Shown here: positions 19,274 through 22,860 of the stretch, piece by piece
Layout of the letters: each line of letters opens with the position of its first letter
Position numbering within the stretch: the stretch's first letter is position 1
Virus record (IMG/VR): IMGVR_UViG_2698536576_000001
DNA length: 22,860 nucleotides
Direction: 5' to 3' (one strand)
Source of the DNA: a virus
Lineage: Duplodnaviria > Heunggongvirae > Uroviricota > Caudoviricetes
The notes under the pieces: generated by a model
Told to the model about the DNA's origin: nothing
Database searches by the model: none
What the model saw: only the letters and a program-made list of their open reading frames with translations
Translations under genes and position numbers: made by a program

Positions 19274-19292
19274 ATTTTAAAACCCAAATTCG

Positions 19293-19316
19293 GGCACCAG
19301 AAATGGTGCCTTTTTT
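19293..19316 (+). terminator. intrinsic terminator after J
   Basis: GGCACC-AGAAAT-GGTGCC hairpin followed by TTTTTT (19311-19316). Confidence 0.65.
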
Positions 19317-19331
19317 ATTTGTGGAGTGAAT

Positions 19332-21728
19332 ATGGCAGTACAGATTTCAGGTGTGCTGAAAGACGGTGCAGGAAAACCAATACAGAACTGCACTATTCAG
19401 CTCAAAGCAAAGCGTAACAGCACCACGGTACTGGTGAACACAGTGGCCTCTGAAAATCCGGATGAAGCCGGGCGTTACAGCATGGATGTTGAGTATGGCC
19501 AGTACAGCGTCATCCTGCTGGTTGAAGGTTTTCCGCCTTCACATGCCGGGACCATTACCGTCTATGAAGGCTCCAGACCAGGTACGCTGAATGATTTTCT
19601 CGGTGCCATGACGGAGGATGATGTCATGCCGGAGGCATTGCGTCGTTTTGAGGAAATGGTGGAAGAAGCGGCACGCAACGCTGAAGCCGCCTCTCAGAGC
19701 GCAGCGGCGGCAAAGAAATCCGAAACGGCTGCGGCATCATCGAAGAACGCGGCGAAAACCTCAGAAACGAATGCAGCTAACAGCGCACAGGCGGCAGCGG
19801 CCTCGCAGACTGCATCGGCAAACTCCGCGACAGCAGCCAAAAAATCAGAAACCAACGCGAAAAATAGCGAGACAGCCGCAAAGACGAGCGAAACCAACGC
19901 AAAGTCCAGCCAGACGGCAGCGAAAACCAGCGAAACGAATGCCAAAGCCAGTGAAACTGCGGCGAAAAATAGCCAGAATGCAGCAGCCGAAAGCGAGAGT
20001 GCGGCAGCTGGTTCTGCGACTTCAGCAGCTGGATCAGCAACTGCTGCGGCTAACAGCCAGAAAGCAGCGAAGACGAGCGAAACTAACGCAAAGTCCAGCC
20101 AGACGGCAGCGAAGACCAGCGAAACGAATGCCAAAGCCAGCGAAACTGCGGCGAAAAGCAGTCAGGATGCAGCAGCTGAAAGCGAGAGTGCCGCAGCTGG
20201 TTCTGCAAGTGCGGCGGCTGCTTCTGCCACTGCATCAGCAAACAGTCAAAAAGCTGCAAAAACCAGTGAAACCAATGCAAAGACAAGCGAGACTGCAGCG
20301 GCGAACTCGGCGCAAGCATCGGCAGCAAGCCAGACAGCAGCTAAAGCAAGTGAGGATGCAGCCAGAGAGTATGCAAGCCAGGCTGCGGAGCCGTATAAAC
20401 AAGTATTGCAGCCGCTTCCTGATGTGTGGATACCATTTAACGATTCGCTGGATATGATTACGGGTTTTTCGCCATCATATAAAAAGATTGTTATTGGTGA
20501 TGATGAAATAACGATGCCTGGCGACAAGGTTGTTAAGTTTAAACGCGCATCGAAAGCAACCTATATTAATAAATCTGGTGTGCTGACAGAGGCTGCCATT
20601 GACGAGCCACGGTTTGAACGTGATGGCCTGCTTATTGAGGGGCAAAGAACGAACTACATGCTCAATTCGGAAAGCCCTGCCAGTTGGGGGCGATCGTCAA
20701 ATATGGATGTTCCCGAAACCGGGACGGATAGTTTTGGTTTTACCTATGGAAAGTTTGTCTGTAACGATTCTCTGATTGGGCAAACCTCAGCCATTAATAT
20801 GGCATCAATTGCTGCAACAAAGTCAGTTGATGTCTCAGGCGATAATAAATACGTGACAACCTCATGTCGTTTTAAAACAGAACTGCAGGTAAGGTTGCGT
20901 ATCCGATTTGATAAATATGACGGTAGCGCAACAACTTTTCTTGGTGATGCGTATATTGATACACAAACGCTTGAAATTAATATGACAGGTGGTGCTTCCG
21001 GTAGAATTACGGCACGAGTCAGGAAGGAGGAAACTACAGGATGGATTTTTGCTGAGGCAACAATTCAGGCAATTGATGGTGAGTTAAAAATAGGCTCTCA
21101 GATACAGTATTCACCTAAGCAGGGAGGGGCAACCGTATCAGGTGACTATATTTATCTGGCTACCCCACAAGTAGAGAATGGGGCTTGTGTATCATCTTTT
21201 ATTATATCAGGAACGACGGCGGCGACTCGTGCGAGTGATATGGTTACGATCCCGACCGAAAACAACATTTATAACAGACCGCTTACTTGTTTGGTCGAGG
21301 TTAACAGGAATTGGGGCGATATTCCTCCTAATGTAGCACCGCGTATTTTTGATTTTTCTGGTGTGCCGCCTATTGAGTCAATCACATACGCTTTTAACAC
21401 AACCGAGAAATATTACGGTCAGCTTTATATGCAAACTTATAAAGCGTCGACAAGTAGTTACGTTTCTAGTTTGTTTACTGGTCGAACGGATGTTCGAAAA
21501 TTCATTGGTGGTTTTAATATTTATTCTGATGGTACTAAACGAGTAGTTTCTAACGGTGAGGCTACTAAAACCATGAAAACGGAATGGACGGGCGTAAAAA
21601 CGCGGACCTTTATTCGAATAGGAGGTCAAGCCACATCAGGGACACGTCATCTATTCGGCCATTTGAGAAATCTTCGTCTCTGGCATAAAGAATTAACTGA
21701 TGCGCAAATGGGGGAGAGTATTAAATGA
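19332..21728 (+). CDS. stf: side tail fibre protein (Stf-like N-terminus, repeat-rich shaft, unrelated low-GC distal domain)
   Basis: N-terminal ~120 aa match lambda Stf as recalled (MAV.ISGVLKDG.GKP.QNCTIQLKA.RNSTTV.VNTV.SENPDEAGRYSMDVEYGQYSVIL...GFPPSHAGTITVYE). Ala/Ser/Thr/Lys-rich repeat shaft. RBS GTGGAG before the ATG at 19332. Confidence 0.88.
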   Translation: MAVQISGVLKDGAGKPIQNCTIQLKAKRNSTTVLVNTVASENPDEAGRYSMDVEYGQYSVILLVEGFPPSHAGTITVYEGSRPGTLNDFLGAMTEDDVMPEALRRFEEMVEEAARNAEAASQSAAAAKKSETAAASSKNAAKTSETNAANSAQAAAASQTASANSATAAKKSETNAKNSETAAKTSETNAKSSQTAAKTSETNAKASETAAKNSQNAAAESESAAAGSATSAAGSATAAANSQKAAKTSETNAKSSQTAAKTSETNAKASETAAKSSQDAAAESESAAAGSASAAAASATASANSQKAAKTSETNAKTSETAAANSAQASAASQTAAKASEDAAREYASQAAEPYKQVLQPLPDVWIPFNDSLDMITGFSPSYKKIVIGDDEITMPGDKVVKFKRASKATYINKSGVLTEAAIDEPRFERDGLLIEGQRTNYMLNSESPASWGRSSNMDVPETGTDSFGFTYGKFVCNDSLIGQTSAINMASIAATKSVDVSGDNKYVTTSCRFKTELQVRLRIRFDKYDGSATTFLGDAYIDTQTLEINMTGGASGRITARVRKEETTGWIFAEATIQAIDGELKIGSQIQYSPKQGGATVSGDYIYLATPQVENGACVSSFIISGTTAATRASDMVTIPTENNIYNRPLTCLVEVNRNWGDIPPNVAPRIFDFSGVPPIESITYAFNTTEKYYGQLYMQTYKASTSSYVSSLFTGRTDVRKFIGGFNIYSDGTKRVVSNGEATKTMKTEWTGVKTRTFIRIGGQATSGTRHLFGHLRNLRLWHKELTDAQMGESIK
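19876..20300 (+). repeat. in-frame tandem repeat, 189-bp unit (63 codons), about 2.2 copies, inside the stf shaft
   Basis: Near-identical DNA copies start at 19876, 20065 and 20254 (GC(A/C)GC(G/A)AAGACGAGCGAAAC(C/T)AACGCAAAGTCCAGCCAGACGGCAGCG...). The protein shows AAKTSETNAKSSQTAAKTSETNAKASETAAK... twice. Confidence 0.85.
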
Positions 21729-22006
21729 AAGATTTAACACTTAAATTTGCCGACAGGGCCGATTTTTCGGCCTTTATGGATAGCACTGGCTATTATGATG
21801 ATGAGTCGATGCAGGATGATATTCTTATTGACGTGATAGGTAACGTGTACAAAGAAACCGGAGAACTGAATGAAGATGGCGAACCGGTATGTGTTAAGGA
21901 AGACGGATATTTTGTAAACGTGCGCATCATTAATGATTCGCAAATATCGTCATTATTCGATGAATACGTGGTTGCTGTTGAGCATCAACTTCGTGGCTGG
22001 ATGTGA
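21725..22006 (+). CDS. small acidic hypothetical protein (candidate fibre assembly/adaptor factor or DNA-mimic-like protein)
   Basis: 93 aa; the ATG overlaps the stf stop (ATGA). About 22 Asp/Glu against about 8 Lys/Arg; low-GC codon usage like the distal part of stf. Confidence 0.5.
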   Translation: MKDLTLKFADRADFSAFMDSTGYYDDESMQDDILIDVIGNVYKETGELNEDGEPVCVKEDGYFVNVRIINDSQISSLFDEYVVAVEHQLRGWM

Positions 22007-22015
22007 GGAAGAAAA

Positions 22016-22860
22016 ATGGCTACATCGACAGTAATTCCTGATGACATCAAAACGCTAAAATCCGACGTTAGCAAATTAAAAAACGATCAAGGAAGCTACG
22101 CAACAAAATTATATGTAGACAGCAAAGATGAAATCGTTGGTGACTGGTCTGCTTCATGGTATCAGCAGGTATTGCCAACTAGCGGAGCTATATTTGGGAG
22201 AAAACTCCGCTCAACTCACAGGACGGCAGGTGTTGAGGATGCGTATTGCGAACTATACCTCAAAAAATGGATAGACAGTCCAGGTAACGCAATGGCGCGC
22301 CTTAACCTGAACGATAACGGGACAAACATTTGCTGGGACTTTACCAACCTTTATGGCGGTACGATGATTTTTCCCGGTGACAGCGGATACCTCAAAATGG
22401 GTAACTGCCTTATGTCATACAGCAAGCGTGGAAGTAACGCGCTTATTAAATTTGATTACACCGACACATTACAGATCAAATATGCCAATCATGGGTCAAC
22501 CATGACATTAAACACACAGGGAACCGCTTATGCTGGTGTTACTGCTCAATTGTGGGGCAACTCCAGCCGTCCTGTTGTTTATGAAGTCGGTGTTGATGGT
22601 GGCGCTTATATGTTCTATGCGCAGAAAAATACCGATAACACCTATATGTTAAGCGTTAATGGTGCATGTCATGCCACCGCATTTAACCAGCATTCCGACC
22701 GGGATCTGAAAGACAACATTCAGGTGATCGATAATGCAACCGACCGCATCCGTAAAATGAACGGCTATACATACACGCTTAAAGAAAACGGTATGCCCTA
22801 TGCTGGTGTCATTGCACAGGAAGCTCTGGAAGCAATCCCAGAAGTTGTAGGTTCCGCAAT
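22016..22860 (+). CDS. tail fibre/tailspike-like protein with C-terminal peptidase S74 intramolecular chaperone domain (3' end beyond window)
   Basis: Hand translation from the ATG at 22016 (GAGGA 7 nt upstream) is open to the window end (at least 281 codons). From about 22694 it reads SDRDLKDNIQVIDNATDRIRKMNGYTYTLKENGMPYAGVIAQEALEAIPEVV, matching the conserved S74 motifs (SD.RLK.NI, GVIAQE...PE.V). Absent from the ORF track because it is incomplete. Confidence 0.75.
   Translation, partial: MATSTVIPDDIKTLKSDVSKLKNDQGSYATKLYVDSKDEIVGDWSASWYQQVLPTSGAIFGRKLRSTHRTAGVEDAYCELYLKKWIDSPGNAMARLNLNDNGTNICWDFTNLYGGTMIFPGDSGYLKMGNCLMSYSKRGSNALIKFDYTDTLQIKYANHGSTMTLNTQGTAYAGVTAQLWGNSSRPVVYEVGVDGGAYMFYAQKNTDNTYMLSVNGACHATAFNQHSDRDLKDNIQVIDNATDRIRKMNGYTYTLKENGMPYAGVIAQEALEAIPEVVGSA

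Follow-up and report, generated by a model that had tools for sequence, protein, structure and literature searches.

A small acidic gene linked to one fibre tip in six lineages of tailed phages

Several kinds of accessory protein are known to serve the fibres of tailed phages. In phage T4, gp35 (372 amino acids, aa) is the hinge between the proximal and distal half-fibres (gp34 and gp36/37), and gp57A is a small, acidic chaperone for fibres in general, which forms an all-helical oligomer and whose gene lies apart from those of the fibres. Lambda-type phages pair Tfa with a side tail fibre, Stf, that has the same N-terminal domain as the fibre studied here. LtfA of phage DT57C carries a C-terminal S74-type chaperone domain (PMC4728585), and Mu Tfa is cited in PMC10579305 as remaining on the fibre tip. 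Alteromonas phages possess modules of a fibre plus a trans-acting chaperone (V22 gp26/gp27 and A5 gp8/gp9), which are common to morphologically unrelated families and whose partner protein may do more than fold the fibre (PMC10579305). Here, we analysed a 22,860-nucleotide (nt) stretch of a Caudoviricetes virus (IMG/VR record IMGVR_UViG_2698536576_000001, referred to at its full length as the window) and, within it, a small open reading frame (ORF) at 21725-22006 that encodes a strongly acidic protein directly downstream of the side tail fibre gene stf. An earlier note on this DNA had suggested a fibre assembly or adaptor factor, a suggestion that gains from the comparative genomics reported below, which ties the small ORF to one fibre C-terminal module (C-module) in six phage lineages.

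Linkage of the small ORF to one fibre tip

The features of the window on which the comparison is built, all on the + strand, are as follows.

19326-21728, +: side tail fibre gene stf, 800 aa; lambdoid attachment domain at the N-terminus, shaft of Ala/Ser/Thr-rich repeats, conserved module at the C-terminus (Pfam, PHROG, NCBIfam)
20376-21725, +: C-module of stf, aa 351-800, common to every fibre that precedes a small-ORF homologue
about 21200-21700, +: ConA/LamG-like lectin domain, the last ~170 aa of stf (sub-threshold Laminin_G_3 match; a swapped cassette)
21710-21718, +: Shine-Dalgarno-like GGGGGAGAG, read from the sequence, 6 nt ahead of the small-ORF ATG and within the 3' end of stf
21725-22006, +: small ORF including its stop codon, acidic 93-aa protein of the PHROG 1361 family (ORF list, composition, PHROG match)
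22016-22860, +: second (distal) fibre gene, starting at ATG 22016 (MATSTVIP...), 9 nt past the small-ORF stop, cut by the window end (Pfam, PHROG)

The small ORF is strictly linked, and translationally coupled, to an stf-type C-module in six phage lineages. At all loci read, it came directly after a "lateral" or "side" tail fibre gene, overlapping that gene or lying at most 2 nt from it, and in each the fibre C-module was followed by the small ORF:

Lambdoid temperate phages: phage 21, Tritos, IdasGreatGrand, ev243 and PhiR47_1
Drexlerviridae: KarlJaspers (Bas06)
Dhillonvirus: KarlBarth
Queuovirinae: VogelGryff (Bas25)
T5-like Tequintavirus: IrisVonRoten (Bas32) and SelmaRatti
Vequintavirus (Vequintavirinae, a myovirus): CarlMeissner (Bas48)

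The fibres preceding the small ORF ranged from 537 to 1479 aa and differed in their N-termini, while their last ~450 residues were held in common with the window Stf; among nine fibres from the six lineages, this C-module was 37-86% identical over ~450 aa and ended each time in RHLFGHxRNxRxWxxxLTD. Database records told the same story: 219 phage records contained the C-module and 181 the small ORF (tblastn with the small protein), the two organism lists were near-identical, and a divergent small-ORF copy was present in both of the two records sampled beyond the small-ORF matches listed. Distant relatives of the small protein, ~30% identical, overlapped an upstream fibre-like gene in four of four contigs (L093, L095, L096 and L097; two metagenomic, two from public sequencing runs); in the three whose fibre ending was inspected, it was of the same kind, as judged from a recorded Laminin_G_3 match (L096) or from the motif as seen by eye (L093 and L095). 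No Tfa-type gene followed these fibres in the loci read, ev243 having only a detached 101-aa "tail fiber assembly protein" past a methyltransferase gene.

In the window, the fibre itself matched Pfam phage_tail_N at aa 3-133 (E 1.8e-67), PHROG 1419 over its full length, and NCBIfam GTA_spike_fiber at aa 436-636 (E 1.8e-12), and its C-module matched the head spike fibre Rcc01080 of the Rhodobacter gene transfer agent (GTA; PDB 6tb9, E 5.1e-7). Laminin_G_3 matched the lectin domain below the Pfam threshold, but did so in five of five homologues (E 4.9e-6 to 6.9e-3), and a "galectin-like" C-terminal domain has been predicted for the IrisVonRoten homologue Gp22 (BASEL II paper, PMC11990801). Infection of O16-positive K-12 by IrisVonRoten depends on its lateral fibres (PMC8594841).

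The small ORF is a real gene under purifying selection and not a chance reading frame, because it was intact, with its ATGA overlap, in 80 of 80 close IMG/VR relatives, because the ratio of nonsynonymous to synonymous substitution rates (dN/dS) across 43 distinct nucleotide alleles was ~0.29 (12, 16 and 27 variable sites at the three codon positions), and because it matched the PHROG 1361 hidden Markov model (HMM) over its full length (E 2.9e-45; residues 1-93 on profile positions 1-92 of 92), a phage family of unknown function. The overlap, in which the start ATG (21725-21727) shares bases with the stf stop TGA (21726-21728), agrees with the translational coupling to stf proposed in the earlier note, and the length of 93 aa and net charge of about -14 given there were reproduced by composition: 13 Asp and 8 Glu against 4 Lys and 3 Arg, i.e., 21 acidic and 7 basic residues, for a net charge of -14 (-14.4 at pH 7) and an isoelectric point (pI) of 4.05. 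A promoter and terminator scan between stf and the small ORF found nothing above chance (7 promoter-like sites against 5.8 ± 2.9 expected). On the other side of stf, between it and gene J, stands a strong terminator-like hairpin at 19292-19311 (8 pairs, then a T run), in the same place as an annotated terminator of phage 21 (L003 3905-3932). The GC content was 41% in the small ORF and 43-45% in the flanking fibre parts, against 56% in gene J and 53% in the whole window, and this low local value is compatible with a horizontally exchanged module.

As a family, the small protein is widespread and unnamed. A 501-bp probe around the small ORF was present in 1068 of 5426 complete E. coli genomes, at up to five copies each and annotated "hypothetical protein"; over this probe the window was 100% identical to a prophage of E. 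coli strain LH85-a. When 1.84 billion representative proteins were scanned exhaustively with HMMER, only 51 clusters matched, and a profile search for the family gathered 392 clusters at 90% identity, all unnamed and none with Pfam domains. The small protein itself had no Pfam family at E ≤ 1 and no NCBIfam or PADLOC match, and its family profile found no solved relative among all PDB sequences, the best match (telomerase p19, E 0.3) being taken as chance. Similarly, a repetitive, adhesin-like protein of 2928 aa (P0156) was considered as a natural fusion and rejected, given that "GEP(L/V)CVKEDG" was all it had in common with the small protein, which was also taken as chance. Net charge ran from -6 to -17 in the alignment, with most members at -8 to -14 and the SelmaRatti and CarlMeissner homologues at -3 and -18, respectively; acidity is consistently a trait of the family, though not a universal one.

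An AlphaFold2 model, built on a 26-sequence alignment, predicted a small alpha/beta domain with the order b-a-a-b-b-b-b-a (predicted local distance difference test, pLDDT, 85; predicted template modelling score, pTM, 0.72). Its C-terminal tail (aa 82-93) was modelled with lower confidence and is nonetheless conserved, including the nearly invariant R90 and W92, which are among the most conserved residues; the combination suggests a putative partner-binding segment.

A few further loci bear on the fibre module and the small ORF in other ways. One metagenomic contig (L093 116-2739) has two spike-fibre-type fibres in tandem, with the small ORF and a 73-aa ORF between them. In phage 1W (L092 5767-8183), three "mobile element protein" genes are inserted near the stf 3' end; the insertion truncates the LamG domain (the match ends at query aa 406 of 450) and parts stf from a small ORF that is still intact, and the match pattern points to insertions of the same type in 4A7, D2, 3W and Lambda_4C10. 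The fibre module, 37-75% identical in protein to the stf C-module, and the small ORF also occur in unannotated records labelled "Campylobacter phage" (MG065692, MG065635, MG065653 and MG065676) and "Listeria phage" (OR847806), some of them with genomes of rV5-like or T5-like size; these are probably coliphage sequences, or their labels are wrong.

Exchange of the fibre tip and its surroundings

Sliding DNA identity between the window and each relative revealed a mosaic locus. Against Tritos, the LamG cassette at ~21200-21700 was the only part to differ (31-72%), both flanks, including the small ORF, being 95-100% identical, and the conserved C-terminal motif together with the small-ORF start appear to form the right-hand recombination anchor of that cassette. 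Against PhiR47_1, the Stf C-module and the small ORF were replaced together (42-65%), between an Stf N-terminus and a distal-fibre start that remained 94-98% identical, and against IdasGreatGrand the distal fibre differed while the small ORF was 81-92% identical. Across 12 loci, small-protein identity followed that of the fibre middle domain (Spearman 0.76) more closely than that of the LamG domain (0.40), with the caveat that the pairs are not independent, so that p-values mean little. Together, the mosaic patterns and the identity correlations argue that the small protein belongs with the fibre C-module, not with the distal fibre. The locus offers a clean case of a cassette, made up of a spike-fibre domain, a LamG lectin domain and a small partner, that is exchanged between temperate and virulent phages.

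Among virulent phages, fibre loci on near-identical backbones alternate between a single S74-ended fibre and an arrangement in which a LamG-tipped fibre is followed by the small ORF and, in some phages, by a separate distal fibre. For example, from aa 1 to aa 1049 rV5 gp41 is 91% identical to the CarlMeissner fibre, after which the two part ways: the former ends in an S74 intramolecular chaperone tip, followed by a 99-nt spacer and gp40 with no small ORF, whereas the latter ends in the spike-fibre/LamG module, followed by the small ORF and a gp40 that is 99.5% identical to that of rV5. Likewise, LtfA of DT57C, at a locus with no small ORF, is one polypeptide in which the Gp22 N-terminus of IrisVonRoten is joined to the body of Gp24, the distal fibre of that phage; it looks like a fusion of the two. 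Judged from gene order, the small ORF occupies the spot at which other fibre tips have a folding helper of their own, whether in cis or in trans, because S74-ended fibres at equivalent loci do without it and because Tfa pairs with Stf of the lambda type.

Downstream of the small ORF, the locus is more variable. The distal fibre of the window has a Peptidase_S74 domain at ~22694-22849 (E 7.4e-14), belongs to PHROG 4563, and reaches 346 aa in full-length relatives; its N-terminal anchor is MATSTVIPDDIKTLK. Such a fibre followed the small ORF in ~75 of the 80 close relatives, with a conserved N-terminus and a variable C-terminus (alleles of 346 and 234 aa). The anchor motif M[AV]T.T.IP.DI..LK heads the third genes of lambdoid, Drexlerviridae, Dhillonvirus, Queuovirinae and T5-like loci, and this ~20-aa N-terminal motif, presumably a docking peptide, was all that the distal fibres of the five lineages had in common (window 22016-22093; L001, L002, L004, L006, L008, L009, L090 and L091), their bodies being unrelated and 98-582 aa long. 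No anchored distal fibre stood beside the small ORF in phage 21, ev243, CarlMeissner or L096. Instead, the gene after the small ORF encodes just a 97-aa membrane protein in phage 21 and ev243 and an S24-peptidase-like product in L096, and in CarlMeissner it is a conserved gene of the baseplate region. Because the third gene varies or is absent, the invariant minimal unit is the fibre tip plus the small ORF. The description of the small ORF in the earlier note as lying between two fibre genes is accurate for the window and does not hold as a general rule, as many relatives have no second fibre.

Two neighbouring features were also recorded. A predicted membrane protein of 95-97 aa (MDITPFLHALCAVAAQ...), highly conserved, ends the fibre cluster in lambdoid relatives; in phage 21 and ev243 its gene is the next one past the small ORF, in Tritos and IdasGreatGrand it follows the distal fibre, and in the present virus its position would be just past the window end. 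It was located in four relatives:

L002 7375-7668: membrane-protein gene
L003 6292-6585: membrane-protein gene
L006 7007-7294: membrane-protein gene
L007 6289-6582: membrane-protein gene

Further upstream, a long Ala/Ser/Thr/Lys-rich repeat (AAKTSETNAKSSQTAAK...) makes up the stf shaft at 19620-20460 and gives rise to several ORFs that are long but spurious, both in other frames and on the complementary strand; ~180 nt of it are absent from IdasGreatGrand, showing that the repeat varies in length.

Possible roles of the small protein

We favour, with fair but far from full confidence, a reading in which the translationally coupled small protein is dedicated to this fibre tip, serving it in trans as an assembly or partner protein that may remain bound to it. 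The protein would be made from the same late mRNA as the fibre, via translational coupling, and would bind a conserved part of the Stf C-module, probably through the conserved, poorly ordered C-terminal tail (..P-L-R-x-W-A) and/or an edge beta-strand. Binding may aid the folding or trimerisation of the tip, or stabilise it, and the protein may stay attached after assembly. Several observations weigh against this role. The predicted fold is a generic small alpha/beta domain, like no known fibre chaperone; no charge complementarity was found between the small protein and the basic LamG domain (rho 0.15, not significant); and the family was not found described in the literature on BASEL I and II, DT57C, KanT1, phage 21 and IrisVonRoten. 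BASEL I and II annotate the small protein as "hypothetical" and RefSeq as "tail fiber protein", and the BASEL I/II models connect the IrisVonRoten fibres with the small protein unmentioned, the text having "Gp23" once where Gp22 seems intended. A further observation is that the same small protein (99% identical) is paired in the window and in Tritos with LamG domains that are only 46% identical. Given this tolerance of very different LamG domains, a chaperone function specific to the variable lectin surface is excluded for the small protein, which must recognise conserved features.

The same pairing bears on a different role, in which the small protein would act as a transient cap or regulator, masking the lectin tip during assembly and lysis so that new virions avoid O-antigen and lipopolysaccharide (LPS) debris, and then detaching. 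We regard this as improbable. The concept of a "transient chaperone cap" has been published for fibre and chaperone modules of unrelated families (Alteromonas phages, PMC10579305), the partner domain here has a ConA/LamG-like lectin fold, related fibres are thought to bind O-antigen (PMC8594841), and the two differ in charge, LamG being basic (9 of 12 loci at pI 9.0-9.7) and the small protein acidic. However, a cap that masks the lectin surface sits poorly with one small protein serving such dissimilar LamG domains, with a charge that does not covary with that of LamG, and with an identity that follows the middle domain better than LamG. By analogy with the hinge of T4, the small protein could also be a structural joint or adaptor: retained in the virion where the proximal fibre ends, it would make up or complete the site at which the T.IP.DI..LK anchor of an interchangeable distal fibre docks. 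This is the chief rival to the reading that we favour, possible, if rather unlikely. The order of proximal fibre, small ORF and distal fibre, in the window, in nearly all of the 80 close relatives and at the Drexlerviridae, Dhillonvirus, Queuovirinae and T5-like loci, speaks for such a joint, as does a set of distal fibres with little more in common than their anchor. For residues 1-26 of the IrisVonRoten distal fibre, every match came from a record in which the whole query, starting at residue 1, was matched, and those checked had the split architecture, while aa 27-120 of that fibre were also found fused inside larger fibres; the DT57C protein, with proximal N-terminus and distal part in one chain, goes without the small ORF; and the T-shaped distal fibre of IrisVonRoten is predicted to attach to the proximal fibre (PMC11990801). 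Against a joint, the small ORF is intact where no anchored distal fibre accompanies it (phage 21, ev243 and their relatives, CarlMeissner, L093 and L096), and identity among the small proteins falls as low as 23% against an invariant anchor core, PhiR47_1 combining an anchor of 96% identity with a small protein of 38%. No peptide of the homologue was seen in the rV5 virion proteome, which carries no weight because rV5 lacks the gene, and the AKFV33 proteomics covered four gel bands, from which nothing follows for its small ORF136. The fuller form of this idea, in which the protein is a stoichiometric virion component, a portable joint that caps the lectin-tipped proximal fibre and offers a socket to any T.IP.DI..LK-anchored distal fibre, appears doubtful to us. 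Joint and assembly roles could coexist.

Least probable of all is that the small protein serves as an anti-defence DNA mimic, blocking restriction or another DNA-binding defence by virtue of its acidity, an alternative that the earlier note had kept in view. Its strongly negative charge and low pI, and the acidity of most family members, are what such a mimic would be expected to have, and the idea rests on charge alone. The gene, however, lies in a late structural/fibre operon, coupled to stf and with no promoter-like signal above chance, and keeps the same position in the virulent phages examined, in which anti-defence genes are located elsewhere in the genome. No sequence, HMM or fold similarity to known mimics was detected (Pfam, PADLOC, PDB profile and fold comparison), and the predicted fold did not resemble a solved mimic with its DNA-like array of surface carboxylates. 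We consider the idea disfavoured because of this position, the coupling to stf, the behaviour of the gene as a cassette with the fibre tip, and the SelmaRatti homologue with a charge of only -3.

The dedicated fibre-tip partner that we favour would have practical consequences. If the small protein is needed for assembly or for attachment of the distal fibre, swaps and engineering of receptor-binding modules must carry the small ORF along. It occurs in roughly one in five complete E. coli genomes, and many BASEL phages that are used as models or considered for therapy have it as well. Annotation pipelines could drop the label "hypothetical" for this gene. Were the joint to prove true, two-segment or branched side fibres, and with them a plug-and-play exchange of receptor-binding proteins, would depend on one small adaptor in six unrelated coliphage lineages and in the same share of E. 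coli genomes.

Comparison with described fibre accessories

If it acts as proposed, the small protein would fill the slot of Tfa in lambda, Mu and P2 and of the S74 chaperone in T5, rV5 and DT57C while being homologous to neither. With the Tfa/gpU/gpG proteins (Caudo_TAP, PF02413; lambda, Mu, P2), it shares a gene directly 3' of the fibre that is co-transcribed with it and moves with the C-terminal receptor-binding cassette, and the stf of the window has its N-terminal domain in common with lambda Stf. The differences lie in the protein and in its partner. As the earlier note had remarked, the small protein does not resemble lambda Tfa: it has no Caudo_TAP or other Pfam match, it counts 93 aa against 194 aa in the Caudo_TAP protein rV5 gp32, and its predicted fold is a different alpha/beta domain. 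The stf tip (GTA-spike-fibre plus LamG) is, we take it, also not a tip of the lambda/Mu/P2 type.

With the S74 domain (Peptidase_S74, PF13884; T5 pb1, DT57C LtfA/B, rV5 gp41, K1F endosialidase), the likeness is one of place, both standing at an equivalent fibre end and being allelic between rV5 and CarlMeissner on a backbone that is 91-99% identical. Unlike it, the small protein is a separate polypeptide and not a cleaved domain, has no Pfam match (the S74 domain of the window is on the downstream fibre), and is modelled as mixed alpha/beta, in contrast to the trimeric, helical S74 domain with its tentacle hairpins (PMC10579305). The Alteromonas modules resemble the present one in placing a small partner downstream of a host-recognition fibre across unrelated phage families; their chaperones are larger (195-240 aa) and S74-like, and homology to the small protein was not detected.

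Likeness to T4 gp35 is confined to gene order, the small ORF being encoded between proximal and distal fibre genes in the window, whereas it also occurs without a distal fibre; that to T4 gp57A consists in being small and acidic. To neither was a relation in sequence or fold found. The DNA mimics Ocr, ArdA and Arn are likewise small and strongly negative, and differ in genomic position and timing, in having no sequence or fold similarity to the small protein, and in that charge varies across the small-protein family.

The small partner, which has never been characterised, has no homology to Tfa, gp38, gp57A or S74 domains. If it is an assembly factor, it represents a new, non-homologous variant of the familiar design of a fibre plus its accessory.

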